A stretch of DNA of 64,000 bases from Bilabrum cf. latius (GCA_965178125.1 OZ237751.1:372001-436000), one strand, 5' to 3'. Counted from the stretch's first letter, positions 9,616 to 53,631 are shown. Notes: generated from the letters alone by a model not told the origin. Numbers and translations are program-made.

Positions 9616-10090
9616 CAGAACATTTTAGGTACAAACACCCGGCACTCCGTGTGATGACGGTACTTTCAAGCAACACATCTTGAGTTCAAAAACCCATGGC
9701 ATGGTATGCACATACAGTTGTAGGCAATTCATGTTTTTGCCTGGTTATACAACGGAAAGGATGCGGACCTTTGCCGTTTGATCCCCAATTGTCCGCTGTT
9801 GCAGTTAGCGCAAGCAATCCTCGATGAATGCTACCGTGGGTGTCCTTTCGTTGCAAAGCTAGAGGGTTGGCCACGGTGGCAAAGTGCGTGTGGAATGGAG
9901 CGAGGAGAACAGCGTGCAACTTCATCGGATCAAGCTCCCCATGATAAAGTCGAAATGAATGGAATATACACCAGACTTCAACCGGTGTGCAAGCCTATCG
10001 TGACTATGATGAACTACGATATCTAAAATTGCCAAAGATTACCACTACGATTCAAATCAAATATACGCCTTGAGGTGTCAGGTGATGCCC

Positions 10091-13000
10091 TTAGATGACT
10101 TCCACGTCGTGACCGCTGAATTGGGTCCCTGTTTCGGCGCTCCCTCGTTCCCCTCGCGACCCGCTTCCAGGACTGCCGCCTGCGGATCCGTCACGCGCCG
10201 CCTCCACGCCCAAGCCAGCGGTCACGGCGGCAGGGCTTTCCCTCGCACCCGGCGATCGCTGCCCGCTGGCAGACCTGGCGCGTGAGCCGGCGCCCGGGCT
10301 CGTCGCCCCTTTCCTCTTTTTCTTGAGCGTCTTGAGCGCCGAGTTCTGTTCCCTGGCCTCCTTGCTCTTGCGGTCGAACATGCTGATCATACTCTGCAAC
10401 TTGGCGGCCCGTTGCAACTTCTCTCCCGCTGCCTAGGAGACAAGGCCTGCCCTCCTCTCCTTCTGCTTCTGCTTCTGTTTCTTCCTCCTGCCGGCAGCCC
10501 CCTGAGGGCCCGCCTCTCCACTTCCTTTGCCTTGCTCGCTCGTGCGGCTGCTCTGGCTCCTACCACGGCCGCGCGGCGCCACTGTTCCAGAGGCGAACGA
10601 CCCAACAGTCGTGGGTGAGACAGATAGACTTCCCAGCCTGTCGTCACGAGCATGAGCATCGGCTGCTTCCCCGCCTTCTTCTTCGTCGTGGCCCCCGTCA
10701 CCGATCGCGAGCAACCTCATGGAAGCGCTCTAACCCAGGCTCCTGCCGCTATCCTGGCCCGGCAGTCCGCTCGAGTTCGGCCTCCCTCGCGACATGAACG
10801 CCTGTAACGGGTTGACGGGCGGCTCCTCGGCTGCCTGGGTCTCGCTCTCCCCCGTCGGCCGGCCTCGCGACATGAACGCCGTAAGCGGGTTTGTAGACCC
10901 TGGAGCGCGGGCGTCTGAATCTTCGCTCGATTTGCTTGGTTCTTGTCCGTTCGATGAACCCGCACCCACGTGTGCCCTAGCCATGGGGTTCAGGCTGCTC
11001 TGGAATGCGCCGGATCGTCCGCCCATCGCCGTGCCCGATCCCATGCGCGAGAAAGCGCCAGAGAGCTTCGCGTCGTGCTCTTGTCCAGAGGTACCAGACA
11101 GGATCGGGCCCAGGCTGGCTGCTTCCACCCGTTTCTTTGAGCTGGGCCCGCTGCGCTTCGAAGAACTCCCATCGTTCGCATCGTCCTCTGCCAGCTTCCT
11201 CTCCTTCTCTGTTTGCTCCCTTTGCTGTTTCTCTAGCTTCTCCTATTCCTGCCGGGTCTTTTCTTGCCTCGCAAGCATTGCTACACGCATGGGATTCAGA
11301 CCTGCGACGGATACGCTGGCCCCTGCCGTGCGCAAAGCCAACGTTGGACCACCGGTGCCCTCGGGCAGTCCCCGGCCGAACAGGTCGGACCTTGCATTGA
11401 ACTGTGGTGCAGATGTCATACGCTCGGCGTCTCTTCTCGCACACATGGACTTCCACATGCAAATACAGCAAAACACGTACCCGCATGCCGCGGCCGCACT
11501 CCCAGCCGCCGAGCCGCACGCCTGGCATGGCCCGTCGAGCCTAGCACCTACTGCACCCATGGCCGCCGTTCCAGCACCCAAAGCGCCACCAACCAAACCT
11601 TTGAACTGCTACCAAAAGCTGGTGATGGCATAAAGGACCAATGCAGCGTTGCTGACAATCACCACCCACGTGGCTGGCGACTCGACGCTGACTCCGTACG
11701 ACTCCAGATTCCTCATCTGCCTCTCGACCTCGACGACCAACACCATTAGCAGGGAGATAGCTGCAGTTCCAATCGCAAGGAGCTCAAGCCGGTTGAGCAA
11801 ATTGTCGTATTGGTACTTCACCGCGGGAACCTGCCTGACCGCCTCTGTCTCCTGCCTACCGTGAGGCCCACCCTCATCCCCGTAGTCAGCAAACACGTTG
11901 AGCCCGTCGTCGATTGCGCCAAGGAGATCCTCCAAAGATGGCGCGTCGAGCGGATCCTGCTCCCCGTCTACGTTCATACCGTTATCTAGGCTGAAAGTCG
12001 AGCCGACGGAGTTTGTCCGCGCAGCTCGCGGGGGGGGCAGCTGTGTTTGGCTGCTCGTGGCCGCATGGGGAGCAGCTGCAGGGCCCAGGGTTGGAAGTGC
12101 CTTGGACTCATTCGCATGGCTAGGCGCGGCACCCAATCTCTACTGAACCATAGAGCCAAGCAAGCTGTTTTCATCTCCTTCTCCCTCCTCTTCCACCTTG
12201 TCTTCCATGTCGAAGATTCGTTTTGGGTCAGGCATGTTGCGGGCCGGCTGGAACGGTTGTCGACTGGACAGCAGCTACCGAACAGGAGTGTCAGCCTTCG
12301 GACCAAACTTGCCGAACAGAGAGGTGCGGGTTCGCCTTCGTACACGTGCTGACGGTGCCTCTAGCACTGTCGCATCGTTTCCAGTGCGAGACTGCGGCTT
12401 TGCCTTCCCGATCCCGCCTTCTTCGCCGCCACTGTCTAGGCCTGGTACAGAACTACCAGCAGCCTAACGATTCAGCTCTAGGACATCAAAACGAACGACT
12501 GGCTCTAACGACCGCCGTTTCTGCATCCTGGCGTGCATGAGCCAGCGACGCACCGCATCGCGCTGGATTGCCTTTTCGTATAGTCTGACCTCGGAGTGGC
12601 ACCGTAAACACAGCATCTTCGAAATCCAGTAGATCATGCCACCGCAACAAATGGTGGAGTAGGGCTTTTCGAGAAGCTCCATCTCAAACACGGCACGGTC
12701 GCGCCGGGCCCCCCTCCCATGTGCGCTAGCTCTCCGTATCTGACCGCTGAGCTGCTTGATGCGCTTGCGGCAGTCATCGGGGTATCGCCGTGCTGCTTCT
12801 TCGTACTTGGCCTTGCGGGCGAGATGCTGCCCTTCTGACTCGTTCAGGGATTTGACTGGCTCCACAGGCTTTGGAGGCATCTTGCGAAGAGCGGCGAGCA
12901 CGAGATGGTTGAACAGGCACTGCTTCCAGCGGATGTACGTTTCATCTGGCATTGCTTCCCACTTGACGTTCTCAGGCAGGCTGTCATCCTCTCGAGAATG

Positions 13001-16000
13001 TCCGGCATTGGACATTCTTCTGGTGGCAATAGAACCGCGGTGCCTGGGAGCAGGCTATGACTTCGAATGATTCAGGGACTGCGACTCCCTCCTCGCTACT
13101 GCACTGCTTTCTCTCCGCGAGGATTGGAGGCCTAGACCCCCCATGGATGAAGAATTTCGAATAAGTCCCCCTCTTCTGCGGCTGCGGCGAGTTGCAACAC
13201 CATCAGGTCCGTCTCTACCCTCTGTAGCATCTTTGCCTGCAGGCTCGCCTTCACCCTCGTCCTCGTTCTCGTTTGCACCCTAAGACGAGCCGCTCGAGCC
13301 TTGCATGCTCCCCGCTGTAGCACTGTCGGTTTCCTCATACTTTACCGCCCTACCAGTGGTATCCAGCTGGATGATTGGCAAGCCGTCGTGGTTGGTTCTC
13401 AGCTGTCTCTGGTACGGAGAGTTCCACGCCTGCAGGCCAAGAGAGATCAGCAGAACACACAGCATGCAAAAGAGCTGAAAGACGGTACCGATCGGGGCAA
13501 GGATGGTCACAGCAACGGCCTGCATTGCCTTGCGCATCAGATTGACAGCTTCCCAATACTTGTGATCGTCAGTGAGCCCGTTGTACAAGAAACTCATCGA
13601 GTTCTCGACGCTCTCCCACGTCTCCGCCGAAATAAATTCGCAGCGGAGCTCAACTAGGCCATACACCATGAGGGGTACGAGTAGACTGAAGCCAAAGAGC
13701 ATTGGAAATCCAACTTGGATCATCTCAAGCTGGTTCTCGCTGCACACGTACTCCAAATCCATGGCAAGACGTAGCTGTCCCTGCGCTGCAGGTGACGCCC
13801 CGTACAGCTCCCACTCATTGACTGCTTGCACGGATGCGTTGTAGACCAGCCAAGCGGACTCTGGAGCATACTTTGCAGGCTCCGTGAGATTGGCAGACTC
13901 AAAGGCTTCCCGCCTTGCCTCAGAGAGTGCATCGAATGACAACCCGGACTCTGGCTGGATGGACCTGCACGAGAGCATTCTGAGTGCTGCCTCCGTGATC
14001 GGCGTGTGCACAAGGAAGCTGATCACAAGGAACGAAAGCCCAATACGCTTTCCAAACATGGACCAGAGATCAAAGCATTCCGTTCTATACGTGATGCCTT
14101 CGCGCAGCTCTACCTGTTCTATCAAAGGAGTGCTGGCATCGTGTACACCTGCAGATTCACCGTAACCGCTGCCTGTTGGACTGCGTATACTGGATGACCT
14201 GACCAAGTTCGACGACTTGCTTGGCGAGCGCTTTGAGCTACCTAGCCTTGGATGAGCGCCAGACTTGATCGCGGCAGCACCTAGCGTAGGGGAAGCTATC
14301 GGTGACTTCGATACCTGGTGCTTTGAGACGCTGGATCCTAGCGACCTCATACTCGATACGCGCACGGAACCTACGGAACGAATCGAATTTCGGCGGCGAC
14401 GACCATTCTTCTTCGTGTGGCTGTGAAGGTGTTCGGGAGCATGATACTTCAGCATGTCGTACAGGGAAGGAAGATGCGTCACTTGGCCATTGTCCAGAGC
14501 CACCGCCACCTCATCCTGGGACAGTGTTCTGCCATAAAGCTACAACGTCGACATGTTATCATTGCTAGCGGCAGTTGAAGCCATGGAGTGGGATTGGTTC
14601 ATACTTGGTGCAGCGGCTGGATTCACGAGTGTTTGCGTGCCGTTCCGACCATCAAACGGCCTCGCCCCAGCGGAGGTGCTCGTGAGTGGAGCGTTCTGGG
14701 CCAGTGAAGATTTTCCAGCTAGGCTGCTTGGTGCCTGCGCCTGCAAGGCTCCTGTGCTCTTGTCCATCTGCATGAGAGCAAGCCTTGCGTCCCCTGCTGC
14801 CATAGCGTTGGAGGAGCCGCCTGCGAGGCGGCGCCCGTCGTGCAGACCAGCCCGTCTTCTACCCAAACTCAGCGGATTAATCGAGCTTAGCTATCGTTGA
14901 CCCGCACCGCCTCTTTGGTGCCCTGTAAGACCAAATCTTCCGCTCCCACCCGATTGTTTGCTTGTGTTGGGCTCTTTGAACGAACCTCCGAAGTTCGGAC
15001 CGCTTGTGTGGTGACCGTGTGACTGATCTGCACGACGATCTGTAGATCGCATTGGATTGACCCCAGCCAGCTTAGGGCCCCCTGTTGAGCTTAGTGTACC
15101 CTGATCATTCTGCTTCTGCTGCTTAGCATTGGCCAGCATGTCTACTCGCGAATGTACTCGAGAACCGTCGCGGGACACGCACCACACCAAGCAGCAGCCG
15201 CAACACGAATCAAACCACGACAAACGGGAGAGTCCGGGCGTAAACGCGACCTCACGACGGTACGCGTCCCATAGTTTCACCTACTCAGACTCTGTTCTAA
15301 CTTCGTCGACAATGTTCTTGGCTCTCTGAACGTGCTCGTCCCACTCGGCGGAGCGACGGCACGTGAGAACGCGCATGCAGCCGGGACAGCAACGCGCACT
15401 TGCGCTCGATTCAGGCCTCCTCAAGAACGCAACGATAAACGATATCACGACTTCAAGCGTCCACATGACGCAGGCGTACGATAAAAGACCAGGGAGAACG
15501 GCGTATGTCAGAAGCGTCTGACCCACCGGGTCTGTTGAATCATCGAGACTGCACTCCAATGCAATCCCGCTGGTCGCAGCAGAGGCACCCACGGATGCCC
15601 CGCCAAAGAACTAGCCCATCGTCACGGGAAACTTCATGTCGACAGATGCAATGATGCCGATAGTCTGTATATGTGTAAACATGATTTTGGCGGCAACGAC
15701 GACTGCCTGGCTCGTCGTATCAGCATTTTGCGACCTCCACGAATTGTAGAGGACGCCTGCGATCGCCAAGAGGATCAAGGCTCCGATCAACAGCCTCTAA
15801 ATGAGCGACCAAGCGCCCTGCTCCTCAGGTGAGGGACAAGGCACGCACGTCCCGACAGCGTTCTTAAAGTACCCGGGCTAGCACTTCTAGCAGATAATTC
15901 CCTGGTGGCCCTCGACGCACCCCTCCAATTCGGGGCTCGACAGCACTTGGACTCCATCAAGCGCCCGTGGTGCCTGACTTTCCGAGTAGGCTTCCAGTAG

Positions 16001-19000
16001 CCGCATGACGTCATCTGGAGGCGCTAGCATGAACTCAACGCTTGTACCATTCGCATCCTGGGATATCACCGACCTTTCGCGTTCGATGGCCCACCTCGGC
16101 AACCTAGAGCTGGCCGGTGGCTCTGCAGTCCGGAGAATGCGTCTGGCCTGGATGAAATGCTGTGCATTTAGCGGAGACGACGAAGCAGGTACTAGGCCAT
16201 TGAGCCGTCTGCTTCCAGAGTCTCCGTCCACGCTGAAATCGTCAGGCAAATCGCGAAGAAAGTTCTCAACTCGATCGTTTCCGGTCCCAACAATAGCTTT
16301 CACTCTAGTTGAATATCTCCATAGGCGCACGAGGGCTTCTGCTACTTGCACGTTCCCGTTGGTCTGCGCAATGGCGAGCTGCTTCTGGGTGTCTTGCCGA
16401 AGCTGCATCCATGGTGGCATGCCAGCCAGCTCCGTCTCCAATTGCACTTGCTCTGGCACACCACGGCAGACTCCCTCTGTCTCGCAACGGATAAACCCTA
16501 CCTGTCCAAAGGACCACTCCAGCCTTCGGTAACCCTCCAAAGCCGCGATCCGATCCGAGCTCATTCCACCGCAGATGGCTCCTGTAGGGCACGGCAGGCA
16601 CTGCTGCTTGAGTCCCAGTCCGTCCGGCATAAATCTGTTGAACTGGCACGAAGCCTTGACAGGAGCACTGACGTAGGCCCACCGACTAGACCTCGTCTTC
16701 GTCTCAACACCACCCGCAACATGCTCTGCTCTGACTCGTATCACGTAAGGCTCCGACGACGGCACATTGAAGCTGGTTTCCACCAAGAACCACGAGTCTG
16801 CCGATCCAAGGTCGGACGGATCGGTGCTGGTGGCATTCATGCGACGACGTTCTTCCGATATGCGCTGCAGGACTGCCGTTGGATCGCTGTATTCTCCCTG
16901 CAGCCCGGCGAGTGACATTGCCGCTCTCGCAGAAACAATAGCAGAATCGTTGAGACTCTGGTCGCTGGATCCTGTTAGTGACCCCCACAAATCAGAACCC
17001 TGCAACAGCTCATCCAAGACATCATCATCGAATGAGTCGAGAATCCATGGCGCACGGCTGTCATCCACGGCCGCGATACGAGACTCGAGATGCTGGATGG
17101 ATTCCACGGTGCCGAAGCTGCCCTCTGCGGGGGCTGCTTCTACTCTGAAACGAGAGGTTGGCAAAAAGTTCAGCGCTTGGGTTCCACTGATCTTGTCAAC
17201 TGCAAGCGCTTCAAGCTTTTCTGATGGGTAAAACCAGCGGGCAATTACCCTAAGGTCATCACCAACTCCTCGCCATGCTGTCGGCGCCAGTGGCGGAACC
17301 GGCGGAGGGAAGTTTTGGGCGATGCCTTTGGGAATCAATCTGGCTCCCTCCGGGGCATCCATACCGTAGTTGCCTGGAGGAAGCAAGCCGTTCACGGTGT
17401 CATCTGACAAGACACCAGACGGATCTATTGCAACTGGTTCCCCAGTGGTTGTAAACCGCTCGAGGTTGGATACACCTGTTCGCATGACAACCTGAATGCC
17501 AACGTATGGCTGCACGGATCCCGGATTCTGCTCGACATGTCGCCACAGCGGATGGTTAGACGGGATATGGCACTTGAGCTCATTTTCAGAGACATGCCAA
17601 TTCCCAGAGCATGGAACTCCTCCCACCGTAAGATTCCGCAGATCAAGAGGTGTCTTTCCAAAGCCTTCTCCCCTAATCGTGATTTCCTCATCCGGCCCTG
17701 CTTCGGTTGGCGTAATGCTGGTCACGCGAGGCGGCGGAACCAGCTGGATTGCTATCCTGGAGAGCTACGACTCTTGCTTAGCAACTGTTATTGAAGATCC
17801 ATCAGACGGCCAGCTACTCCCAATGACACCGATTCCATCCAAACCGCTTGACGCATTGGCACGAGCCTGCGCTGGATCTACCCATTTCAGCCCCACGCAT
17901 CGCACTGCCCGACCAGGCTCGACCAGCTCGACCCTGTGGCATTGAACACCACCAATGCGAAGATCCGTCAATTGATCGATGACGAGTGGGAACGAACGAC
18001 CGCGAAGTAGTATCGACGCCTCCCTATCACCCGCTAGCACCGCCACCGGGTTGTCTTCATCAATGGTTGGGGGGCAGTACGCCAAAGACAGCGGCCTGCT
18101 CACAGCGCCCCCAAGCAGCTACACCCGAACCTGAATCGCTTGACCCGCCCCAGGTGGCAGGATTAGCTAAATTAGCTCCCTTGACACCCATCTCGGCGAC
18201 AATACCGTCGTATTGACGTTCCCAGTCGGGATGACAGGAACGCTCGTAGTACCAACGACGGGCAGAGCAGCCGCAAGCTGCCACGAAGAAATACCCATGG
18301 CCGCGAGACTGGCTGGCTCCATGAGCTTAGAACCATTGACAATACCTTCGCGACTACCAGAGATGACACTTGTTGAGTTGAATCCAGCAGCGAGGGCGGC
18401 CTGCTCGAGATCGAATCCTGACAATAGCACGTACTCCACTTCAAGCGGGCTAGTCCCGAATCCAAAGCCCTGCACTCCAATGACTGTCTACGACGACCCG
18501 CCTGTCGTATCAGAGCAGGAGCCGGCCAGACCAATCACACGCGGTGCAGTGCCCAAGTCTACTGTGAACTCGGCGGACTGGCCCGCGACCAGGACCGACG
18601 CAGCGCCCGTCCACTCCACGAGACCGCTCAAATCATTGTCGCTCCACTGGAGTTGGTTGCAAATTAGGCACGACGCCACGGACTGCAGTTCAGGTGAAAA
18701 CTATGACACGTCAATCGTGCCCCCTCGACCGTTTGCCATGGACCTAGCGTCTGCCAAGCTGATGTCTGAAACCCCAGTACATGGGCGACCTCCGAAAGTC
18801 AATCTGCGCTCTACGGGTAGTTCAGCCCCGAAACTAGCACCACAAACCAGAATAGGTCGTGCCTCACCGAAGACAAGTCTCTCTGGCTGAACAGTCATGA
18901 TTGTAGGCGGCTGGTACCCAAATGTGCCTACAGCAATGGTGCCTGTTCGCATGACGACGGCTACTCCCACATCAGCTCCAGCGCCGGAGGGAACACTAAC

Positions 19001-40000: not shown

Positions 40001-43000
40001 CATCCACTGGCCGAGCCGAGCGCCGCATGCTGTGGCGTAGCCTGGCAGAGCTACATCGAGCGACTACCAAGCCCGCACGTGTATCTCCGCTGGAGTGTGC
40101 AGGCTGGCGTCCAGCTCAAGAACCTGGATAACACCTTGGCCTTCAAACGCACCCGGGGCACCAACTGCAAGCAAGCATCCGTCGGGGCCTAGCATGGCAC
40201 CATGAGTCTCAGTCTGAAAGAACGCAGACGGTTCGAGTGGCTGGCAATGCAGCCATAGCACAGATTGTCCCCAATCTGCAGGTCCACCAGTCGACTAGAC
40301 CGAAGGAACACCCTGCTTGCCTGGCTCCAGAGCCACAGCGGTTGACCCGGGTGGCAGCATGTATTCATCCCCATCTGCGCTCCTTGCCACTCTAGCGTCC
40401 GGCAGGTATGGATCACTCGATATAGGCGCTGCCCGTGCGCGTAGTTGGTTTGCCACACTTGGAATCAATACGATCCAGGCCCTTCCTACTTCAGGCACAT
40501 CGCTGCGTGAATTGCTGGTACTTTCTCCAATTGCAAGCAGTGCAGTGAGAGGCAGCTGCACCGCTCCCCGTAGGCCGCCATCTGTGAGGGCAGACGAGAG
40601 GAGGGTGAAGCTGAAACTAGATCCCAGCTGCCGGTTGGCGTTGGATGCGGCCACGGAGCTATTCCAGGTCTTGCCAGTCAGAAGATGCAGGAGCTGGAGA
40701 TTTGCTCGAGCGATTTCTGATGTCTCAATCCCACCCCCCATGGACGGTGGCAGGCGATGGAGCGAACGAAGAGACAACACACCCTCAATAGCCCCAGGAT
40801 TGTGTGGAAAAGGTACCAGCAGCTGATGGGCTACCATCAAAGACTATGCATGAAGCGGCTAGGTGCCAACCCAAGGCACCGAAGACCCCGTCGATTGACC
40901 AGCAGCTGGATTCATGGATACACGTACCCCATGCTACACCAACTCGCTACCTGCAAGTGTCCTATATCCGCGGACGGGCATCTCACATACAGCCTGGCTC
41001 ATGCCCTCAAGGCAATTCTCAACGAATGAAAGCTCGCCGCCCTTGGAAAGATCAATGATCCAGCAGCTTGAATTACCTGTGGACGACACGGTGAGGCCAA
41101 ACTACCCCGGCTTTGTCGCAGTCGACACCGGCCTCCACGGTGCCGGACCTATGCAGGCTTTGCAGGGCAATGGGACGTCGTGATCTACCGAGACCTCGGA
41201 TGACAGCAGCACGCCGGGAGTGGAGGCATCTCCCTCGATGGCGGAGAGAAGGTCAGCGCACTCACTGCAGATGCCTAGATGCGCGGAACTGGCGTTGGAT
41301 TGAAGAATCACATACGCCTGGCCGATCTGGGCATTCTATGGAACCCTTAGTAGCTACTATATGAACATTAACTCGGCAAAGGAGTCTACCACTGCAACGC
41401 CAGCTCCTTCTGCTCTCGATAGAAGTCCTTGGTATCGACAGCTGTGATCAGCCTCACCGATCCCTGCTGCACCGTACGAAGTGGTTCGGTAGCACGACCA
41501 CAGGGCCGCTGGAGACTGACCCCATGCCCACCGCCGAGAGCCTCCCAGCACCCAACCCTCGGGACATATCCTTGGCGACGCGTAAGCTAGGAATGAGTCT
41601 GGGACCTGCATGGCAGAAACGGTGCCATGCGTCTCGTTGCATGGGATACACTGGCCTTCAATTTGTTGCTTTTGGCCTGCTTGGCATGCCAACGGCGGCT
41701 TCTCACACACGTACCGGCGCTGGTCATTGCACCGAGTCGAGATCCAGAGACCCCCTTCCGTATATCTGCCGCAGTTGTGCATGCTTCCAGCGGTTGGATG
41801 ACCTTGCACCCAGTTATTTGCTCCTCCATTGGCAATCAACAAACCGTCTTCCTCAATCCACTCCCACTGTTCAGCCACAACGAGATCATGAGCACCATGC
41901 CAACACTCTGAAGTGCCGGTTTCTCTCACACAAAAAGCATACACGTCTAGAGACTCATGCAGGGAGTTCAATGTGACCAGATGACTGCCTTGTGTCTAGC
42001 AGGCGTCACGGGCTTCGGTCCAATTCTTCCTTTCGGACCCAATCTGGTAGCAGCTGCTGCCATCCACTGCCGGAGACCAGCCTACAGGGCAACTGGGTTG
42101 TGCGACACTGGGGCACACTCCTTGCAGCGGTTCTAGCTAGTGGGTGCCATGCAGCTCGTGGTTTGCATGACTCATTGTGCGGCTGGCATTGTCACTGCCA
42201 GTGGTCGCAGTGTCAGCGGAGAGAGTAGGATGAGCTGCAGCCAATGATCCATTGGTGCTAGCAACGGAAAGAAGCTCGAGATGCTTGCCGACCTCGATAC
42301 CCTTGCCGGTGCCACCACTCAGTAACACCTGCAGGGTACCCAGCTAGGCCTAGTAGTCCACATGTGAATCCGGCCAGGAAGGTAATCGCACGACGTCGAA
42401 GACAGTGCCAGCCGGCCGAGTTCCACCATCATTGGATGGGCTCAAAGCGATATCGGCCTAGCCAATTGACGTACTATCATTAAAAGACCCGACATCGAGC
42501 ATGCTGGCACCATATCGCACGCACCAAGCGCACTTAAACGAGATCCATTGTGACTCTGCTTCGATGGCAAGGCCGCGTCTGAGGAGAATCTCGGCGTGGG
42601 CTACTAGCTCACCGTCGCTCCCAGGAATCACAGAGGTGAGATCTCGAACCAAATCATGGGCCGATGGCATGCCTAGGCAGACGACATAGAGGGTGTCATC
42701 TGAGTGACTTGAGTCCTCCTGAAACTCGATGCTGGACGACTCGCATGACACCCCACCGATCGCAACCACAATGGACTACTAATTAGCACCCAAAAATGAA
42801 GCACCTGTGCTGATGTAGTTGATTTGCATCCTTTGCTCCGCATTCATGCGCAGAAGAAAGCCGATCGAAGACGAACCATGACCAAGTTTACCCGGAACAT
42901 GGCAGCTCTGTGCGGTGCCCAGATCCTCCCGATGCCCCGATGGCCATGATGAATAACTCTTGCGCCAGAATCCCACCGCCGACTGGCTGTTTGAATTCAG

Positions 43001-46000
43001 TGTACCGTTGGTGAAGTTCTCAGCAGCACTAATCCATGAGGCGTGGCAGACTGGGGCAATGAGGGAGCTTGCCGGGCTTTTCGCGGCTTCTTCGGTCCTG
43101 TGCACCGCAGACATTAGGATAGCTGAAGCAGAGTCAATGAACTTGAGTACAGCAGCTGATCTCGTTGGAGCCCATCCACCCCAGCCTCTGTCCCACTCTG
43201 CAGCACTCATTCCGACCTGCAATCCCACAAGACCTCCTGGGTTGCCTTCGCGGCTGGAGTCAAGGTACACGCCCGCGGTGCTGGTGGCAATCGAGCCGCT
43301 CCCACCTGGCACTGCGGGCACGTCCAAGAATCGAGACGCGGCTTCAATGCTGTGGCCCCTTTGTCTTTGATCCTCGTACGCAGCTAGAGAAGCCTAAACC
43401 TGTGTCGTAAGGTTGTACAGAATTTGCGGCCCCCTCATGTACTACTGCCCAACCCCTCTTGCGTCCTGTGGAGCTGGCCATGCCGTAAGAGCGAGCTAAT
43501 CAAGTCCATCTAGGTACAGTGTCGCAGAAGCTCCGTTGTCTGGCGAGGACAGCAAAAGTATCGGCTGCATGCTCACGACATGTGCCTCACCACATGCTAG
43601 AGCGTACATGCGATCAGCGACGTTCCAGCGCTCTAAAGCCTCTGAGGAACGAGCTGGGGCTGCCGTGGAATTAAATGTAGCCTCAATCATGCTAGACATT
43701 CGAAGAGATGCGTAGAGGCTGTCACAGTCAGCATCTGGTGCCTCTGAGCTTCCACTGCTTGGTCCTGTGCGCACCCGTGCACCAGGGAGAAGGGCTCGCG
43801 AGAGGGGCGCGTCATGCCCATCCTGCTGCAGTGGGAATGATGGCTGGAAGATCGGAACGGCTGTCACTAGCTTGAACGTAGTATTAGAAGGTCTCTAATC
43901 TGCTAGACCTTTGTTCCTTGGAAGACTCGAAGACTCAATCACGGCCAGAACTGCCGCAGGTTGCTGCTGGCCAGAAATCTGCAACGCCGCCATTTCGCAG
44001 ACAGGCACGAACAGTCGATTTTGGTCAAAGCAGGGCCAGCTGCCAACACGATAGCTGTTTCCAGACCTTGTCGCTAGCGCGCATCGCCCCTCTTGAACAT
44101 CTTCGAGCGAGTTTTGACTGCCGCAGTACCAGCGGTGCTCAGTCCCACCGGACAGAGACCCTGCACCAATCCATGCCCAGAAATTCTAGCCGGCTTGGCC
44201 AAGGGCAGCGCTAAATGCCTGCCGACTGTCAGCATCAGAAGGCGGAGAGCACACAAGGTGGGCAGGCGGAAGCTCGATAGGGCCTAGAGTAGTGCACGCC
44301 TCTTCTGCTTGTCCAAAGCTCAGTTTATTCGGGCCGACTTTATAGCAGTGGTCCGTGCTGTAGGAGTTGCTGCCAATATTGAAATCTCCGCCATACCACC
44401 CCGTTGGGCATTTGTTTTTCTTGATCATCGCCTACGAAGACTCATGAATCTCTTCAAATCCTACGGCGAGCACAGTGCGATGGACAGTGCTGCTTGCAAA
44501 TCCATCAATCGGATCAAACAGCTAAGGCCCGTCTCCTGACGAGCCGATCATCGCCGGAACGTGGTCAACCTATGCAACCAGCGCGATTGACTGTCCAAAC
44601 CCCTGAATCGTTGCATCGGCGGGCGACCTGCTGGCAGCAACACCTGCCCCACCTACGCCTACGACCCACGGGTACTTTCGCGCTAAACCAGGGCCCGCGT
44701 CATCTGGATACATAGGATCGATTCGGGTAGCATGCGTGGCGGTGTACGATCTGCCAAAACGAGTGTGCTCGAAGACAACAGATACGACCACAACGGCTCC
44801 AATTCCGTGGTAGGCACCTGGTGCACCGACTGCGAGCTGCAGGAAGCCAGACTAACCTAACGTGTCACCGTTCTCCTGCTCCATGACTGCCATGCTGGCG
44901 CCAAACCTGCTCTCTTCAGCACAATCCAACGTGCCCTCTAGAGCCTCAGTGGTGGGAACTCCATTATATCCGCATGGCGTCAGGCGAAGCAGCACGTCAA
45001 CGTGACTGCTTGCAGTCCCAACCCCTTGGTGAAGCGAACCGGTGAGAGCAAATTGCGGCTGCATGAGGATGGATAGAACAAGCACCTCGCCTGTCTTACT
45101 TGCTGAATGGGCCCCTGGTGCACCAGCCAAGACTATTGATTCGAGTGGAACTGACTCAGAGTATCCGCCAGAAGTTCCGAGCGCAATCATGCTCGCCCCC
45201 AGGCCTGCTTCGATGCCACCGGTGGTGGTGCTGCAGCAAGCCTGCTACCCCTGTGACCAAGCCGACGTGCCGTTCTGGCTAGCGTTCGAACTTGAACTAG
45301 ATGCAGTACCAGCGGGAGCTGGTGCTGTTGCAGTGGTGACATTGCAGCACGGTCCGTTCGTAATTGCCGTTACACCGATCACTTGCACTCCAATGGTCGT
45401 GCCGCGTGATTGGAGTGCGGATTCAGGCGCGGACACTCGAGCAAACGGTGCAAGCAACACAACGGTAATACCCTAGAGAGTGCCATCGCGCTGGCCAGAT
45501 TGCTGCACCCCAATCAATGCAATAGAAACACTTCGAGAAATTACATGAAGGCTATCCCTAGGCGCCTAGTCGATACGACGAAGTGCAAAGTGCCTTCCTG
45601 TCCGCTCCAAGCTCTGAGCTGAAATCGGTACACTCATTGTAGCAGCAGATGCATTGCTAGGGTTCGTGGGTGGCGCGGTTAGGACTAGCCCAGTAGCCAC
45701 GAGCTCAGTTGCCGTCGCATTCATTGTGCCTGCGATATCGTTGCAACGCGTCGCATTGTCCATCTGTCGAGCTCGTCGGCATGCGCCTACCTCAAGGGCA
45801 GGAGTCAGGTCCAGCAAAGATGATATCTCCTGGAAAACATCAGGTGTCACGTCAGGAACTAAGCCCTTGGTACGTAAAAGAGGCAGGACTAGCGGTGCTG
45901 CTTCGAACATAACGCTCTGTGCGGTTTCAAAGGACCCAGATAGCACGGCTGCCGATGAGCCAGAGCCAGCCATCGCAGAAACGTTCACACCATTTGCCTC

Positions 46001-49000
46001 ATCGAGCTGCACGCATCCTGGGCACGCGACTTTGACTGTACCTACGACAGACTCGCGACCGTTGAATGGACCCGAGCTGGCCATGCAGCGAGGATCGTTC
46101 GCAGGCAGAGCAAGCCCCTGCCTTAGCTCCTCTGAAGCAAGAGCAGTGTCGTGCCACGCACCCACGCTGCACCCATCCACGATCACATCATAGGCCACAG
46201 TCACATCTGCAGGCCTATTCGTGGGCAAACCAGGAACATCAGGACCTTGTGGGAGACCCAAGCACATGGCCCACGCCCACCCACCCGAGTCTTCCCAAGG
46301 TCCCACCGCCACCTCGTGCTTGCCATCTTCCAGCAGCACCCTGGTGCGGTTGCGCACTACCCCCGGCCAAGGACCCATGGCTGCCACATCACAAGGCAGG
46401 CCGTTCACCATCACGTGCCGCAGGACAGCCCGGGCTCGACGTGATCCGAACATGGTTAGAGGTGGGAGTCGCTGGATGGACTCTTCCGCACGGCTGTGGT
46501 CATCGTGGTTCAACTATGGCGGCCACATTCGGAGCATCCCGCGAGGCATTTCTTCGGAAGCGTTTCGAATCAAACCAATCGACTATGGTGACATGCGATG
46601 CACAATGCTCGCGTTCTCGCCGGTTACACTAGGATCGATCCCGACCACCTCCAAGCCCGCAACCTCCACACCGGCTGGCATCCTAAGGGCGAGGAAGAAG
46701 CCAGACGATCCAGATCCATCTGTAGGTTTGGATGAACTCTTCCGTACAGACACTGAGAAAACACTCCGGCTGCTCTTTCCCGTCGTACTGCTAGTGGGCA
46801 GGATCAGGCCAAAACTGCGAGAGCCGTTCGTTGCAGACCAAGGCGATAGCAGCTGCCCAAAGGCTGCATCTCTGAGGATACCTGCTAAGTTCTTCTCTAT
46901 CGTTTCATCGACTCCATTGGCAGGGATGGCAGCTGGAATGGTGCCATTTGGTCCCTGTCTTTGCACTGAGCGAGTCATGTTCTCATTGCTCGAGGCAACA
47001 ACGCCACCCGGTCTGAGCCAGGCGTTGCTCAGGCGACCCATCATCTCATTGATGATGGAAACGCTCAGACCAGAGTCCAGCGGTGAAACTTCTGCTAGTT
47101 GGACCAATGAATCAACGCAACCCTACCCAAGGATCTGTTGAACCCTACCGTTCTGCTCCGAACGGGAGGCGATGCCATTTACGTCATGCAGTGGGAGCTG
47201 CAGTGCCGCCAAGACTGACGACGGCTAGCATTCGCCCGGGAGGCCTCCTCGCCCTATTGGCTGGTTCAGTGAGCCACTCGGTGAGGCACTGAAGGACCGA
47301 TTGCCGAGCGCGAGCTCCGGATGTCCGTCCAGTTCCTGCAAGCCGGGCTGGATCTCCGGGGCGCAGCCAGGCGTGCCAGTGTGCACTGCGTGATTATCCT
47401 TGTCTGTGGATGCCCCGTTGACACCGAATCCAAGGCATGGTCCTGCCTCGATGGTGCTCTTGGAGCTGTACTGTTCCATCGCAGGCTCGTGAGCGCGTGC
47501 AATTTTCTGATAGATCGGGACGGCTCCGCCCGCATGCGCTGCACCGTAGTACCGAAGGCCGTTGAGGGCAGCAGGGGGACTTGAAATGATCATCTCTGGG
47601 AATGAAGGGACCGACTGCAGAGGCGCACCCTACTGGGCGCTTGCATTTGTCTCCAGAGTCGGCGCTTGCAGCACCCATGGGACGTGGATTGCAGGAGTGG
47701 CAACTGAATCTGTCCAATCGTTCGGTGCGCTGTGGTGAGCTGTCTCGTTGATCACGAGAATGCCACTAGCAGGGGCCACGCACGGATCAGCCGCAGCCAG
47801 CCAGCTCTCTAGCGTATCGTTGAATAGCTGCCCACCTGCTGCGAGGCCGCCCGATTCAACGCGCCACAGCTGCCGCTCAAGATGTCGGCACCGTGGCTCC
47901 ATCGAGTTCAGGTGTTGCTTCGCGGGCCTGTCTCTGCGACTTGCGCCGGGACGACCCCCAAGGCTGGCAGATCCAGAGCCCAGCCCAGGCGGAAACAGCC
48001 AAAGCCGGCCGGTTGCGTTGTTCCCTGACATGGCACTCCGCAGGTCTCCATCGGTCGACTTGGTCTTGGCCTCAAAAACTCTCCAGACCATGCCCTCGTC
48101 CGGATGCCCTGCGTCTGCTAAAGGTGCAAAGCCGGGGATGATGTCAGATGTCTAGATCAGAGTGACTCCGGCATCCATAGGCGAGGGCACGCCGCCCACT
48201 GTCTGCGGCTCGTCGCTGCCAGACATGAGCTTCAGAGTATCGAGCGCCCTGCGGTACAGGCCGCCGAGCCCCACGCTGCCCAGCGAGACCAGCGGAGACA
48301 CCGCCTCAGCAGCCGACTACACGGTGGCATGGATTGGCCGCAGGCAGTAAGCATCCCTGCTTCCACTCGATCCCATCTGGTACCAATCGATGCTTGCCAC
48401 CCCAGTGTCCCGATAGGCAATCTCATCGTGGTCTTGGGCCAGAAAGTAGTTGCGGACCAAGTTGACACGATCGCCGGTTCCAGTTCCAATCCAGGAAGCT
48501 GGACCCACAGGCGGAGCATCGCTTGGGATGCCCCCGCCCTGCTAGGCGCTGCCATCGTCTACTCGCCGGTACGGGCTGTTATTACCCGCCGAGACCAGCC
48601 CGAGCTCGACCTTGTGACTGCCGCTGATGGAGGCCATGAACTTGGCTCCCATGACCGTGCGAGGGGCTGCCAGCACGCCGGCAAATTCCCCTCGATGACA
48701 GTCGGCCCAAGCTGCCGCCCGATTCGCGCTATGTAGCACCGCAGCGCACATGGTGGGATCCTCCGGCCACACGACAGACGGGTGCATATGCCCAGTTCCT
48801 GCAGTCAGGTTGCAGTGTGCGGGGGCGCTGCTGGGCAGGCGGTGGCGCGTGGCACTGACTGCCAGAAGGGCGCGCGGGCCATGCAGTAGGGCGCTGTTCT
48901 GCTTGGCCAGCTGGACCACCTGTGAAGCCTAGTCGCCTGAACGAGCTCCTCCTCTTCCAGTGGCGGCCGGCTCGACCGCGGCCTCCCGTCCGTGCACTAC

Positions 49001-50383
49001 GATCTGCGAGCCAAACCCAAGGACCAGCTCTTCGCCCCACGCAGGGAAAGTAAGCGAAGCCTTCCAGCTGTCACTACCGCTATCGTCGTGGCTAGCGTCG
49101 TAGTCGAGGGATACTGCCGGGGGCAAGAATTGGCTCGTCGCATGGCCGCTCACTCTCGGTCCTTCGATCACGGCGTAGGAAGCAATCACAAAGTCGGACG
49201 ACTGCTTCTGCCCGTTGACTGATCGTTTGTTCCAACGCTCTGCAATGGTAGTGAGAATAATTGCCCCTTGACCATCGAGCAGGCCGGGCGCTCCGACGGC
49301 AAGGACAAACGGCTATGCGCAGTCCACGTGATCGCTCCAAGTGGCCGCCACCAGGTGGCTGCATCGGGCTCGGGTCGTGTCTCTCGCTCCGCTTTGCATG
49401 TAGTCTGCATCCACTAACGCAACTGCTACACCGATGGCTGCCCCATCTTGCGTCAGGGTGGATGGAAACCCGCCAGCCCGACCGTCCATTCCTGACACCA
49501 GACGCGTAGCACCGGTTTGCAGCCAGTCTTGGGGGTAATACGAACCCCGGGTTCCATTGAATAATACACGTGCGATAACCAACCCCCCCGACCCGTACCC
49601 GCGGCCTCTTGGCGTCTCGGGGGAGCTTTGCAGACCACCGACACCCGCAGCTCCCGCGCCTGGAATCCCGGCAGCGAGGATCAACGCGCGGCTCTCACTC
49701 CCGTGAATGCGTGATAGCTGCTTACTGTAGCTACCCAGTGTAGTAATCGAAGAACCAAATCGATCGCCCGTTCGAAGCGCCCCTTGAAGCGCGATAGACC
49801 CGAGCATCGCTACTGGTGCAATGGACCCAGATTGAAAAGCCGGATGCCTTAATGTTGCCACTACAATGCCTCCTGGCCTGCTCGCCGCAAGCGACTGCCT
49901 ATTGGTGCTGATACCAAACTGATCCAGGCTGGGGAGCTCTGGGAGTCCAAGCAACACGGTCCGAGAGCAGCTTTCGAGCTCTTCGCCACAGGATTGTCCA
50001 CCCTACTCTTGGTATGCGCAAATTCCCCGGTCCTTGTCACTTAAGCCACCGCATTCAAAAAGATTATCGTTCACTAAATGTGTGAAGCCAATGGGATTCC
50101 TGTTGGCGTGCTAATAGGCCCGGGCATGGCTGCACACCGACGACAGTTCTTGGACACCCCGAGGGCCAGATGCGGCCTCTTGGTCCATAAAGGCACGGGT
50201 TGACTCGTTGCTGCATACTTGCACTAGTAAATCAATAGAATGAAGCCCAAGTCCAAAAGAGCGCGAGTCTTGGCGCGTTTGTAGGCTTGACTGGCCAGCT
50301 AGAGCACAACCGCAGCCAACTGCGAGCAGTGCCAGACGTATTGCTTTCGCAGCGAGCGCAAGCTTGGGAATCGAAATTATCAT
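10091..50383 (-). CDS. Giant, apparently intronless cell-surface/adhesion receptor-like protein, about 13,430 aa (signal peptide, lectin/propeller/IPT ectodomain, multi-TM domain, cytosolic tail)
   Basis: 67 track ORFs from 50111-50407 down to 10091-10417 all lie in one frame (low coordinate = 2 mod 3). 66 end in TAG and the last in TAA. The gaps I read by eye contained only TAG. First ATG after the upstream TGA (50450) is at 50383, followed by a signal-like MIISIPKLALAAKAIRLALLAVGCGCALA. Confidence 0.88.
11609..15815 (-). other. Multi-pass membrane region (about 9 TM helices) of the giant protein
   Basis: Hydrophobic segments with motifs typical of protist Cys-rich/multi-TM surface proteins: KIMFTHIQ, LRMLSC, LYNGLTDDHKYWEAVNLMRK, LQAWNSPY, LLNRLELL. 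Preceded by CVEGHQGIIC*KC*PGYF and CLPCPTGAICGG. Confidence 0.75.
17450..21300 (-). other. Array of about 7-8 IPT/TIG (Ig-like) domains within the giant protein
   Basis: Recurrent P-x-[IV]-x-S-[IV]-x-P...I-x-G-x-x-FG...[IV]GGxxC, e.g. VTSITPTEAGPDEEITIRGEGFG...VGGVPC, LKGQYFG...IGGLQC, LRGRSFP...IGGVQC. Confidence 0.7.
19145..19800 (-). repeat. Ser/Thr/Pro mucin-like linker with N-glycosylation-rich segment (in giant protein)
   Basis: PSVSPSRSPTPPVTPSVSPSGSPTPSVTPSLSPSPS, with a near-duplicated 42-nt unit around 19180-19270, and many NxS/T sites. A second S/T/P tract lies at about 22750-22870. Confidence 0.85.
34125..34430 (-). other. SUEL-type (galactose/rhamnose-binding) lectin domain in the giant protein
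   Basis: LRCPVGETI*SVSFAYFGTATGSC...CDAPGVRSIVETACVGKQEC...DPCIGVVKQFAVSVVC. The TAG at 34370 lies inside the domain. Confidence 0.75.
37120..37330 (-). other. PAN/Apple-like domain in the giant protein
   Basis: SCDENCRDNPDCYAYYW...GTCYEL, a CxxxC...C...C pattern. Confidence 0.6.
41100..44420 (-). other. C-type lectin-like domains in the giant protein (about 43990-44420, 41690-42100, 41100-41580; weaker copies near 38200, 35500, 35000-35400, 31900-32300)
   Basis: CPTGWYGG...HCYKVGPNKLSFGQAEEAC...G*NFWAWIGAG...WPC...VCE; WHGAHD...WEW...NNWVQGHP...NCG...WISTRCNDQRRYVCEKP; CPEGW...SCY...EADHSC. Confidence 0.75.
44770..45200 (-). other. FG-GAP/integrin-alpha-propeller-like repeats in the giant protein (others near 49650-49800, 40100-40650, 37400-37600, 36700-36850, 27300-28130)
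   Basis: Repeated RFG[AS]S...(L/V)AVGAPG motifs, e.g. SRFGASMAV...LAVGAPGAYHGIGAVVVV, IVLAGAPGA, LLAVGAPGAFEGQG, LIVGAPRA. Confidence 0.65.
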
Positions 50384-50716
50384 TGTTTCCTCGATGAGGC
50401 AATTCAAGTGCTTCGGTACGCTGCCTTTTGCAAAGCTTCGTTGCAGCGATCAGATTCTATGGCTGCCCAATGAACGGTGCAGACCACAAGCCCGGCCGCA
50501 GTGCACGCGCTGACGGCACCACTGGCAGTACTACCCGGACCGACCGCAATGACGCGCAGTGCACCCAACTACTGCTAGTTCACGCACAATGGGATGACTT
50601 GGCTAACGCAAAGAATAAATAAAAACTTATTCGTTGCTGCGCACGCCTGAGTGTGAACTTCGTTCTGTCCATACTTCCGATAGAAGTGCAGCGCTAGACC
50701 ACACCAGGTTCAATCA

Positions 50717-52282: not shown

Positions 52283-52404
52283 GCGAGCAAAGCTCAGCCT
52301 GAGACGCCAGAAGTCGACTAGCCACTGGACGATACCGCGCGGTGTGATGAGCCACAGCCCGATCATTTTTTAGCGCCATCACAGCCAAGAATTTGTCGAA
52401 ATAC

Positions 52405-53631
52405 ATGCTACGCAGCATGAGGGCCGTCAGAAAATGCAATAAACTGTTTGGTTGCGCGCACAGATGCTTGCAAAGCTCTCGGTCGCTGTCGATTTCAGCG
52501 TCAACCTGCAGCGACATTCTGTCAGCTGAAGAAGCCGCGCACTACATTGGCTCCTCGAGCGCGATTCCAATTGACCTGGGTCATCCTGCTGCAATCGCAA
52601 GATTGGTGAGTACATGGGCGCTTGGCTTTGCGTATTAGCTCGCGGTCCTCCAGTTTCCACTGTCGATCCTTCGCGATCGTAGCCGCCAGGTTACAAGCAG
52701 CTCCCGTCGCTTTTTCGAACCGAGCGATGATTGCAACTTCCGAGGTTTAAGCATTGCAGAGCTTTAAAGGCGCTCGAGCCTCTCCTCTTCCGGGGACCGT
52801 GAAGGGTGGCGACGGGCTCGTGCTGCCGCTGGAGCAGGTGTCTGGTGTGAGCAAATCAACATCCATTTACCGCAAGCTTGAATCGGGAGGCTGTGAATAG
52901 GTATGCTTTATATGATCCAAGAAACCGTCTCGCAGGCGCTCGTGGAAGCTGGTATCGCAAAAGGCAACGACCTGCTACTGCTGGATGACGGGCAAGGAGT
53001 GGCAGCCGCAAGGCTCTGGTGGGTACTCAGGTATTACGGATTTAAAGGTCAGGTCAAGGTGCTGAATGGGGGCACGCCATCATTGATCCAAGCCATTCAG
53101 AGCGGAAACGAAGCGGTTCTAGCTGCCGTGGGGCCTGGAGCCGTGGTTCCCGACGACGACGCTCGCACAGCCGCAACGCAGAATCCCGCACCGCTGTCGG
53201 CGACTGACGAGTGGCTTTACTCCCCCGAGGACGCATCAGCGAGCATCGGCATGGCAGGTGGCCCCAGCGGCCGCTCCCCGGACGAGAAGGTGCTCCTGCT
53301 GGACGTGCGTACGGAGGGCGAATGGACTGGAGACGACGAGAGGGGGAACCCGGTGACGGGGCGGCTGCCCGGCGCCGTGCACCTGCCGCACGCGAAGCTA
53401 TTAAAGGAAGGTTCGCGGGAGTTCCTCACGGGAGACGCGGCGCGGTCAGTGCTCCAGGAGAGCGGCGTGCCCTCACCCGACTCGGAAGGCCTGGTGGTGG
53501 CGCCTTACTGCCAGTCAGGTGTCAGGGCCTCGCTGGCTGCTCTGGTGGCGCACTCGGCGGGGTACAAGGTGCGGAACTACGACGGTTCTTTCGGGTATCA
53601 CGCGAAGCACGGGCTTGCGGTGGAGGAGTGA
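52405..53631 (+). CDS. Two-domain sulfurtransferase (rhodanese / 3-mercaptopyruvate sulfurtransferase-like), about 327 aa, probable mitochondrial presequence; exons 52405-52605, 52760-52846, 52936-53631
   Basis: AARLWWVLRYYG, VKVLNGG, LLDVRTEGEWTG, GRLPGAVHLP, active-site YCQSGVRAS, YDGS. Predicted introns 52606-52759 and 52847-52935 (GTGAG...GCAG) preserve the frame. The 5' exon structure is less certain than the 3' exon. Confidence 0.8.

Follow-up and report, generated by a model that had tools for sequence, protein, structure and literature searches.

C-type and SUEL-type lectin modules occur in the polycystin-1, REJ and adhesion G-protein-coupled receptor (GPCR) families of animals. Fungal Flc1 homologues combine PF14558 with PF06011 and are described as having a role in Ca2+ homeostasis (PMC9600462). 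In Pkd2 of S. pombe, a signal peptide is reported to be followed by an outer domain of Ig-like type, nine transmembrane (TM) helices and a disordered tail (10.1101/2022.08.11.503631), and its Ca2+ permeability has been reported to be stretch-activated (PMC9727806). The cysteine repeat modular proteins (CRMPs) of alveolates are described as starting with a signal peptide, followed by binding modules on the outside and a Cys-rich region like that of the EGF receptor; their C-terminal TM helices number five in Tetrahymena and nine in Toxoplasma and Plasmodium, the C-terminus is cytosolic, and a contact-sensing role has been proposed for them (PMC9670195). As to the genetic code, UAG read as glutamine (Gln, Q) with both UAA and UGA kept as stops has been reported for Iotanema spirale (PMC5304391). 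Ciliates with a reassigned UAG have been reported as well (PMC11687900). Here we describe a stretch of 64,000 nucleotides (nt) of DNA from Bilabrum cf. latius (GCA_965178125.1, OZ237751.1:372001-436000), in the following called the window, which contains an open reading frame (ORF) of 13,430 codons interrupted by TAG only. This giant ORF is an intron-free, real nuclear gene of a microbial eukaryote, and the C-terminal part of its product belongs to a conserved, uncharacterised pan-eukaryotic protein family.

When the window was translated with TAG read as Gln, one minus-strand ORF was obtained at 10091..50407 (13,438 amino acids (aa) counted from a TTG). Its first ATG, at 50383, is identical to the end coordinate given in an earlier note that had been made on this DNA from the sequence alone. 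Starting from this ATG, the ORF comprises 13,430 codons plus a TAA stop (40,293 nt), and the mass of the product was calculated to be 1.419 MDa. The frame contains 108 TAG codons, no TGA and a single, terminal TAA. Each of the other five frames over 10091..50383 contains 96-169 TAG, 43-72 TAA and 150-357 TGA triplets; at these off-frame stop frequencies ln P for 13,431 codons without TAA or TGA is -356.7. Chance origin of the open frame is excluded. The commonest base at codon position 1 was G in all 26 of the 1.5-kb windows along the ORF, thus no non-coding island or retained intron is visible in it. Self-BLAST of 300-aa windows revealed just two pairs of internal similarity, both old (24-31% identity), and the only repeat found in the ORF by Tandem Repeats Finder was a 42-nt unit present in ~2.5 copies at 19176-19284. 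Under table 11 or the standard code the longest open piece within the ORF is 612 aa, and the 108 TAG codons split the frame into 109 segments, 74 of which are at least 60 aa long. The earlier note had proposed translation with TAG as Gln as a check; it gave an uninterrupted frame, and every checkable detail of the observation was confirmed. One frame is indeed kept over 40,293 nt without in-frame TGA or internal TAA, the unbroken periodicity agrees with the claim of no frameshift or evident intron, the product is of the ~1.4 MDa stated, and it is not built of recent tandem repeats. The 74 segments of at least 60 aa also prove right the prediction that standard-code annotation would yield more than 60 pieces.

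TAG is a sense codon at this locus. TGA is the stop of all eight neighbouring ORFs and TAA that of the giant ORF; none of the nine ends in TAG, and in-frame TAG is present in the giant ORF as well as in seven of the eight neighbours. The Gln codons CAA and CAG are used 188 and 324 times, respectively, in the giant ORF; since CAA is common yet no internal TAA occurs, TAG alone has been reassigned. Protein comparisons indicate that TAG most likely encodes Gln, an assignment that is well supported. Public orthologous fragments of the C-terminal part (58-93% identity) have Q at six of the ten TAG sites, the other sites being occupied by E, E, S and V. In P0172, an orthologue (85% identity) of the RlmN-like protein encoded in the window, the residue at TAG-350 is Q, and the sequence stops at residue 509, just before TAG-510. 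When these orthologue sites were pooled, Q was found at 7 of 11 TAG positions, to be compared with ~4.6% Q overall. Less similar fragments of the giant protein (28-47% identity) carry S, K, S, N, D, L, V, S, T, E, T, Q, T and A at TAG sites. Among 119 distant RlmN homologues, Q is the commonest residue (15/25) in the fourth TAG column. The residues found at TAG sites in E. coli RlmN (R, R, K) were discarded as evidence on codon meaning; the distant homologues are uninformative at three of the four columns. The DNA has a G+C content of ~57%; Amoebophrya sp. ex K. veneficum is described as reading all three stops and as AT-biased, unlike this locus (PMC12005148).

Relatives of the C-terminal part were found by a phmmer search with residues 11240-12340, which yielded 566 matches at E ≤ 1e-3, 96 of them at E ≤ 1e-10, among 1.84 billion representatives. 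A coarse word-index protein search with residues 11200-12400 had given no match among 1,483 scored proteins (candidates of 2,436-7,753 aa); HMMER then succeeded. Among the 150 matches listed, the homologues other than the short close fragments are 426-5,923 aa long and have the same four blocks close to the C-terminus. A profile (A1) was built from 48 homologues of the C-terminal module. When hmmsearch was run with A1 against the giant protein, all conserved blocks were recovered (full E 6.9e-104). All five invariant residues (C11611, C12139, C12214, R12284 and Q12303) and 12 of the 13 near-invariant residues are kept, the one exception being a W to F replacement at 11585. Relative to A1, the giant module contains three lineage-specific insertions of ~165, ~430 and ~530 aa. 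DUF7630 was matched by 34 of the 48 A1 members at E ≤ 0.01, and Ephrin_rec_like by 3 of the 48. The domains preceding the module in the homologues are TIG arrays (up to 20 units), FG-GAP, RCC1 propellers and SRCR. Named members come from Chlamydomonas (C. schloesseri HYH02_006843), Thecamonas trahens (AMSG_10409) and Aureococcus, hence the family spans eukaryotic supergroups.

In the public protein P0016 (5,923 aa), the largest homologue listed, there are two copies of the Cys-rich plus TM module (residues ~2214-2666 and ~5309-5645); P0016 is either two adjacent genes merged by the gene caller or a true tandem receptor. Of the 150 matches listed, the longest one with a single module has 4,734 aa, and the giant protein with its 13,430 aa is ~2.8 times larger. 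We found no literature on DUF7630 (PF24633) or DUF7631 (PF24634); the papers found on PF06011 deal with fungi or are animal TRP catalogues, and none in these searches described this class of proteins. In this sense the architecture is, as the earlier note had put it, not one recognised as described. Its membrane-proximal half (TIG array, DUF7630-type motif and multi-pass domain), on the other hand, recurs in eukaryotes, with 566 database representatives: the giant protein is an extreme member of a family, not an unknown architecture. It is extreme in its size, in the composition of its ectodomain and in its concealment by a rare code.

The family leads to the Pfam domain PF06011 (TRP): at E ≤ 0.01 it was matched by 25 of the 48 sequences in A1, the best of them with 2.6e-14. 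With the TRP cut-off of 28.5 bits, P0154 (29.4) and P0160 (31.0) pass, and P0026 (22.3) and P0153 (24.1) fall below it; the matches in P0154 and P0160 cover profile positions ~273-400 of 426. As judged from these profile matches, the multi-pass domain is a divergent branch of PF06011 of the fungal Flc/Pkd2 type. We take Pkd2 itself to be a PF06011 member. AlphaFold2 modelling of homologue P0006 with A1 gave a confident helical bundle (predicted local distance difference test score (pLDDT) 76.5 overall and above 90 in the TM part). An A1 profile search of the PDB returned nothing below E 0.16, and ESM Atlas gave no more than leads for P0006 (0.83-0.84; TIG, Ephrin_rec_like and DUF7630 clusters).

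The features of the giant ORF are listed in Table 1. Pfam scans were run on 4,500-aa and 1,000-aa pieces of the giant protein, and matches were considered to E ≤ 0.5. Only three domains passed the Pfam cut-offs: Lectin_C (residues 2785-2895), SUEL_Lectin (5329-5419) and TIG (10885-10944, 7.8e-9). The C-type lectin at residues 2760-2905 also matched the mannose receptor and DC-SIGN in the PDB (to 1.8e-16), and the SUEL domain matched 5iaz (5e-6). Weaker copies resembling the C-type lectin domain (CTLD) were recovered at residues 1991-2035 and 6221-6273 by iterative self-search. A self-built FG-GAP-like hidden Markov model (HMM) recovered all seven of its 'LAVGAPG'-type seeds and no further copy; the motifs are isolated and spread over 7,300 aa. 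Pfam FG-GAP had no match in the giant protein, and a seven-bladed propeller of the integrin-alpha kind was not found. Within the TIG array residues 9922-10156 matched 10731-10939 in self-BLAST. Pfam matches to FTP/F5-8 were absent, and a single-sequence AlphaFold2 model of residues 5300-6320 had a pLDDT of 31.6 and was unusable for recognising this fold. The scans returned neither PKD, REJ, GPS/GAIN, PLAT or 7TM nor Kringle, MAR or EGF.

Table 1. Features of the giant ORF and of its predicted product (positions are those of the window; KD, Kyte-Doolittle hydropathy)
Feature	Residues (aa)	Position	Strand	Evidence or remarks
Complete ORF, ATG to TAA		10091..50383	minus	13,430 codons, 108 in-frame TAG
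TAA stop codon		10091-10093	minus	end of giant frame
Putative signal peptide	1-29	50297..50383	minus	KD peak 1.81 at aa 8-26; ALA|GQ cleavage read from sequence
FG-GAP-like motif 1	~361	49220..49399	minus	motif scan and self-built HMM
FG-GAP-like motif 2	~1751	45050..45229	minus	motif scan and self-built HMM
FG-GAP-like motif 3	~1850	44753..44932	minus	'FGASMAV...LAVGAPG...GAVVVV'; motif scan and self-built HMM
FG-GAP-like motif 4	~3405	40088..40267	minus	motif scan and self-built HMM
FG-GAP-like motif 5	~4311	37370..37549	minus	motif scan and self-built HMM
FG-GAP-like motif 6	~7485	27848..28027	minus	motif scan and self-built HMM
FG-GAP-like motif 7	~7675	27278..27457	minus	motif scan and self-built HMM
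C-type-lectin-like module 1	1991-2130	43994..44413	minus	self-search match 1991-2035, 9e-10; second stretch in PDB mannose-receptor matches
C-type lectin domain	2760-2905	41669..42106	minus	Pfam Lectin_C (PF00059) 1e-13, 52-56 bits vs cut-off 22.6
C-type-lectin-like module 3	6221-6300	31484..31723	minus	self-BLAST to aa 2775-2863; jackhmmer 1e-17
Weak PAN_4-like stretch	4369-4402	37178..37279	minus	Pfam E 0.014, 15.9 bits vs cut-off 27, sub-threshold
SUEL (rhamnose/galactose-binding) lectin	5329-5419	34127..34399	minus	PF02140 1.2e-10, 37.7-42 bits vs 31.4
S/T/P-rich (mucin-like) segment 1	9158-9224	22712..22912	minus	at least 60% S+T+P in 40-aa windows
S/T/P-rich segment 2	10331-10422	19118..19393	minus	carries the sole tandem repeat of the ORF (42 nt, ~2.5 copies)
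IPT/TIG-like array, ~eight units	9713-10975	17459..21247	minus	iterative self-search; broken by S/T/P-rich segment 2
Family module part 1	11183-12327	13403..16837	minus	two Cys-rich motifs and TM 1 to ~7, lineage-specific insertions; A1 domain E 1.5e-96
DUF7631-like Cys-rich motif	11259-11281	16541..16609	minus	Pfam E 0.025-0.056, sub-threshold
DUF7630-like (PF24633) Cys-rich motif, before TM1	11488-11516	15836..15922	minus	Pfam 2.4e-4, 21.0-21.6 bits vs cut-off 27
TM helices 1-3	11527-11654	15422..15805	minus	KD peaks 2.39, 1.73, 2.09; aligned to TM helices of A1
Ser/Arg/Lys-rich insertion TM3-TM4, ~460 aa	11655-12114	14042..15421	minus	unaligned to A1; K+R 12.9%; predicted cytosolic
TM helices 4 to ~7	12115-12322	13418..14041	minus	motif FLYxG...YWExxxxxRK; PF06011-matching block in homologues
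Low-complexity insertion TM~7-TM8, ~545 aa	12323-12867	11783..13417	minus	unaligned to A1; K+R 14.9%; predicted cytosolic
Family module part 2	12861-13039	11267..11803	minus	hmmsearch domain 2, 3.4e-8
C-terminal tail, 507 aa	12924-13430	10094..11614	minus	low complexity; charged probable coiled coil QEKTRQEQEKLEKQQREQTEKERK

In the membrane module eight to nine Kyte-Doolittle peaks were counted in the giant protein, and the homologue model has 9-11 helices. The last two TM helices are at residues 12868-12886 and 12905-12923 (peaks 2.46 and 1.73). Weak ELAPOR/ephrin-receptor-like matches were found beside TM1 (TNFR_ELAPOR1-like, E 0.22). N-x-S/T sequons occur 1.01 times per 100 aa in the ectodomain vs 0.2 in the tail, and the Lys plus Arg (K+R) content is 7.4% in the ectodomain vs 14.2% in the tail and 13-15% across the parts predicted to be cytosolic. 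The distribution of sequons and basic residues fits a topology with the ectodomain outside and the loops and the tail inside. Short 'NP[ML]' motifs recur between residues 11770 and 13260 (~10600-15070): GVNPMRS, SINPLSL, GLNPMRV, SLNPMAR and, twice, NPL(T/Q)AFMSRGRP. These motifs of the putative cytosolic parts may be linear binding motifs.

The order of parts given in the earlier note was borne out to a large extent. The hydrophobic N-terminus ending in ALA|GQ is a predicted signal peptide, the S/T/P stalk is represented by two segments and the IPT/TIG array by one Pfam TIG plus ~eight TIG-like units detected by self-search. The Cys-rich motifs, ~9 TM helices and ~500-aa tail reappear as Cys-rich motifs, 8-9 hydrophobic helices and a tail of 507 aa. 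The list of interleaved modules stood in part: one C-type lectin and one SUEL lectin were established by Pfam, whereas FTP/F5-8 had no match, PAN stayed sub-threshold and FG-GAP was represented by motifs only.

The middle 10 kb was found in six sequencing runs from three studies. A contig of run X1 (51,526 nt) had no difference to 44001-54480; from its own coordinates it would begin near position 2955 of the window, and X1 itself may perhaps be the source of the assembly. In run X5, which belongs to a separate study, 1.00 of the sampled words of 25001-35000 were present. Run X6 (labelled 'RNA?', like X9) contained 0.86 of the words of 25001-35000 and covered nine of the ten bins of 44001-50670, bin 47336-48002 being uncovered. 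The contig depth of X6 and X9 cannot separate transcript from DNA carry-over and was used neither for nor against transcription. Within the 44001-50383 part of the ORF no joint was detected in any of four runs. Three GT..AG joints were present in X6/X9 contigs of neighbouring genes (52604-52759, 52846-52936 and 54169-54454). Since these segments are skipped in X6/X9 and kept in the DNA runs X1 and X5, they are spliceosomal introns, and the neighbouring small genes do have introns, as had been claimed. In contigs of the DNA runs X1 and X5, position 61107 is followed, after 23 other letters, by position 50975. This backward joint is not explained by any repeat in 50400-64000; it may reflect a structural variant, a duplication or a ~10-kb circular form.

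We consider the product to be a multi-pass membrane glycoprotein of 13,430 aa and 1.42 MDa that works as an adhesion-coupled sensor (probability about 0.6); some role as an adhesion or sensing receptor is likely. The signal peptide would send ~11,500 residues outside the cell, where lectin modules, FG-GAP-like motifs and long stretches without assignment would be exposed. Two mucin-like segments and a rod of ~eight TIG units would hold the ectodomain off the membrane, the ~nine-helix domain would serve as the anchor, and two loops and the tail, all three of them long, basic and rich in Ser, would lie on the cytosolic side. By analogy, the ectodomain might bind glycans of prey, substrate or partner cells, and pull or ligand binding might be transmitted via the rigid TIG/Cys-rich neck to the Flc/Pkd2-type domain. 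This domain could then alter ion (Ca2+) flux, or the loops and the tail could recruit cytosolic partners. An ion-channel or mechanosensory function of the giant protein is suggested by analogy, not by evidence. A bolder version is doubtful, namely that these proteins form an ancient, as yet undescribed pan-eukaryotic receptor class, with the giant protein as its extreme, in which one chain joins an adhesion mega-ectodomain (lectins, propeller-like motifs, TIG rod) in cis with a nine-helix domain of the Flc/Pkd2 type, and pull or glycan binding directly gates Ca2+ entry. If true, the giant protein would do in a single polypeptide of a protist what polycystin-1 and polycystin-2 do as a pair, and its lineage would be one in which, as is rare, UAG alone has been reassigned.

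Several results weigh against the sensor and the code assignment. No piece of the giant protein matched PF06011 directly at E ≤ 0.5; the link runs via homologues and concerns about the last third of the Pfam model only, and the ML-like/TRP_N domain (PF14558) was absent from the Pfam scans of the giant protein. A Foldseek search with the P0006 model gave no PDB match at E ≤ 1e-3, the weak ones being Ig/FN3-like only, so a channel is unsupported by any solved fold. The channel status of the fungal relatives is itself debated, the term used being 'putative' (PMC9600462, 10.1101/2022.08.11.503631). About 95% of the ectodomain is without Pfam match, and a TAG-free 492-aa piece of it scored 0.76 in ESM Atlas (recognition 1412) and gave nothing usable. 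No run on record as RNA spans the giant ORF, and transcription as a single mRNA is putative. Concerning the code, ARAGORN detected no tRNA gene in the 64-kb window, thus the decoding tRNA was not seen, and Q was not the commonest residue at three of the four RlmN TAG columns of the distant homologues (H/V/R; R/D/H; D/E/N).

The main rival to the sensor is a purely structural or adhesive role, that is, a coat protein of a glycocalyx, scale, stalk or attachment, whose multi-pass domain would neither signal nor conduct ions but provide just an anchor and a sorting signal. Adhesins typically have mucin-like segments, lectins and a TIG rod; motifs for a pore, for gating or for enzymatic activity were not identified, and Foldseek found no channel-like fold. 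For such a protein, however, a single helix or a glycosylphosphatidylinositol anchor would suffice, whereas here a multi-pass module conserved across supergroups has kept all five invariant residues, and more than 1,400 residues of predicted cytosolic loops and tail have been maintained in frame. We regard the coat protein as unlikely. The giant protein could also correspond to the alveolate CRMPs, either as an analogue in function or as a remote relative; these are surface sensors that would trigger regulated exocytosis upon contact with a target cell. The layout described for these proteins (signal peptide, binding modules, Cys-rich region, multi-pass domain, cytosolic C-terminus; PMC9670195) is held in common, and the weak ELAPOR/ephrin-receptor-like matches by TM1, together with Ephrin_rec_like in 3 of 48 family members, point in the same direction. 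But the likeness concerns the architecture as described, Kringle and MAR domains are missing, and the named family members are green algae, an apusomonad and a pelagophyte, with no alveolate among them, which makes this alternative quite improbable.

Two further alternatives concern the gene rather than the function. TAG might be a sense codon for another amino acid, such as Glu or Leu, or be read ambiguously: E stands at 2 of the 11 orthologue sites, R, D, E or H prevail in three TAG columns of the distant RlmN homologues, and UAG=Leu has a reported precedent in a rhizarian (PMC5304391). The predominance of Q at the pooled orthologue sites (7/11 vs ~4.6% overall) and in the fourth RlmN column (15/25) argues for Gln, so that we give a different meaning only a very small chance. 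Least credible, and close to refuted, is the notion that the frame is not one functional gene but an assembly chimera, a decaying pseudogene, or a merger of same-strand genes with TAG sometimes acting as a stop. RNA evidence across the ORF is missing, the best DNA run, X1, may be the source of the assembly, and the unexplained back-joint from 61107 to 50975 in X1 and X5 indicates structural variation nearby. Intergenic DNA would, however, hold in-frame TGA or TAA, and there is none in 40 kb; periodicity extends over 26 of 26 windows, none of nine ORFs ends in TAG, the run of a second study has the complete middle 10 kb, and the C-terminal module retains every invariant residue of the family. 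One intact gene for an adhesion-coupled sensor, with TAG most likely read as Gln, is the interpretation that we prefer.

The genes surrounding the giant ORF encode an AAR2 homologue, an RRM protein, YbeY, a rhodanese, EamA, RlmN and a pyroglutamyl-peptidase + PTH2 fusion. This gene set, together with the introns, marks the locus as eukaryotic and nuclear. Genes for YbeY and RlmN suggest that the cell has an organelle in which ribosomes of its own are at work. The best named relatives of the RlmN-like gene (59397-61100, plus strand) are from early-diverging fungi and bacteria (~31-33% identity). Its public orthologue P0172 runs from an internal Met at residue 139 through residue 509, before TAG-510; from these boundaries, public protein sets seem to contain genes of relatives that were wrongly called with the standard code. 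The ORF at 61226-63019 (minus strand) has four in-frame TAG codons and combines a pyroglutamyl-peptidase-I-like domain (aa 139-330, PDB matches to 4.6e-7) with a C-terminal PTH2/Bit1 peptidyl-tRNA hydrolase domain (1.3e-25). Directly downstream of the giant ORF, at 6889-9615 (minus strand), lies a 908-aa ORF with a signal-peptide-like start, seven in-frame TAG codons and no Pfam match; its product is probably secreted. Two small Cys-rich genes (54060-54939 and 56138-57009) form a tandem pair with a spacing of ~2.07 kb and 86-92% identity; in an X6 contig, a GT..AG intron of 284 nt (54169-54454) was seen in one of the two. An antisense ORF of 495 aa at 45654-47141 (plus strand), opposite the giant gene, had no Pfam match and is probably a by-product of G+C-rich coding DNA. 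Satellite arrays occupy 57-1025 (88-bp unit, 11 copies, 97% matches) and 1365-2979 (55-bp unit, 29 copies, 95%). With every one of the six frames open throughout these arrays, the long 'ORFs' there are repeat artefacts. Rfam had no match in the window.

Standard-code gene callers would cut the giant ORF into 109 pieces, and breakage of this kind is already present in the databases: the public orthologue fragments are 66-199 aa long, and every one starts at an internal Met. To our knowledge, the giant gene is among the largest single-exon protein genes. Many 'hypothetical' giant surface proteins of protists are now tied to the Flc/Pkd2 (PF06011) membrane domain, which provides a testable idea of how free-living or parasitic protists convert contact into signal. 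The comparison suggests that the fungal PF06011 proteins represent the reduced extreme of a far broader family. Reassignment of UAG alone is known in very few cases, and the locus adds to them a eukaryote that is GC-rich and intron-poor.

With respect to the code, the pattern is the same as in Iotanema spirale and NCBI table 15: TAG is sense, most likely Gln, and TAA and TGA terminate. The main stop here is TGA (8 of 9 ORFs), whereas UAA is reported as the primary stop of Iotanema spirale (PMC5304391). The nearest relatives of the protein are the TIG-DUF7630-multi-pass proteins (e.g. P0048, P0053, P0026 and P0160), with which it shares the C-terminal module, the four blocks and the invariant residues, as well as TIG preceding the module, a variable adhesion-type N-terminal part including FG-GAP, and a signal-peptide-like start. 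It differs from them in its 108 TAG codons, the three insertions within the module and its length of 13,430 aa, and it carries CTLD and SUEL lectins, neither of which turned up when nine homologues were scanned one by one. S. pombe Pkd2 and Flc1-3 of S. cerevisiae and Cryptococcus resemble it in its predicted layout, in which a signal peptide and a beta-rich part outside the cell precede a membrane domain (~nine helices, with 8-9 hydropathy peaks in the giant protein) and a disordered cytosolic tail with a coiled coil, but their ectodomain is ~150 aa vs ~11,500 aa in the giant protein, which is without the ML-like/TRP_N domain. The alveolate CRMPs (TgCRMPa/b, PfCRMP1-4, TtCRMP1/2), compared by description only, have the same order of parts; the giant protein is several times larger and has no Kringle or MAR. 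Lacking PKD, REJ, GPS/GAIN, PLAT and 7TM domains in the Pfam scans, it is an analogue rather than a member of the polycystin-1, sea-urchin REJ and adhesion-GPCR group, with which it shares the concept of a huge ectodomain of lectins and Ig-like repeats mounted on a multi-pass sensor.

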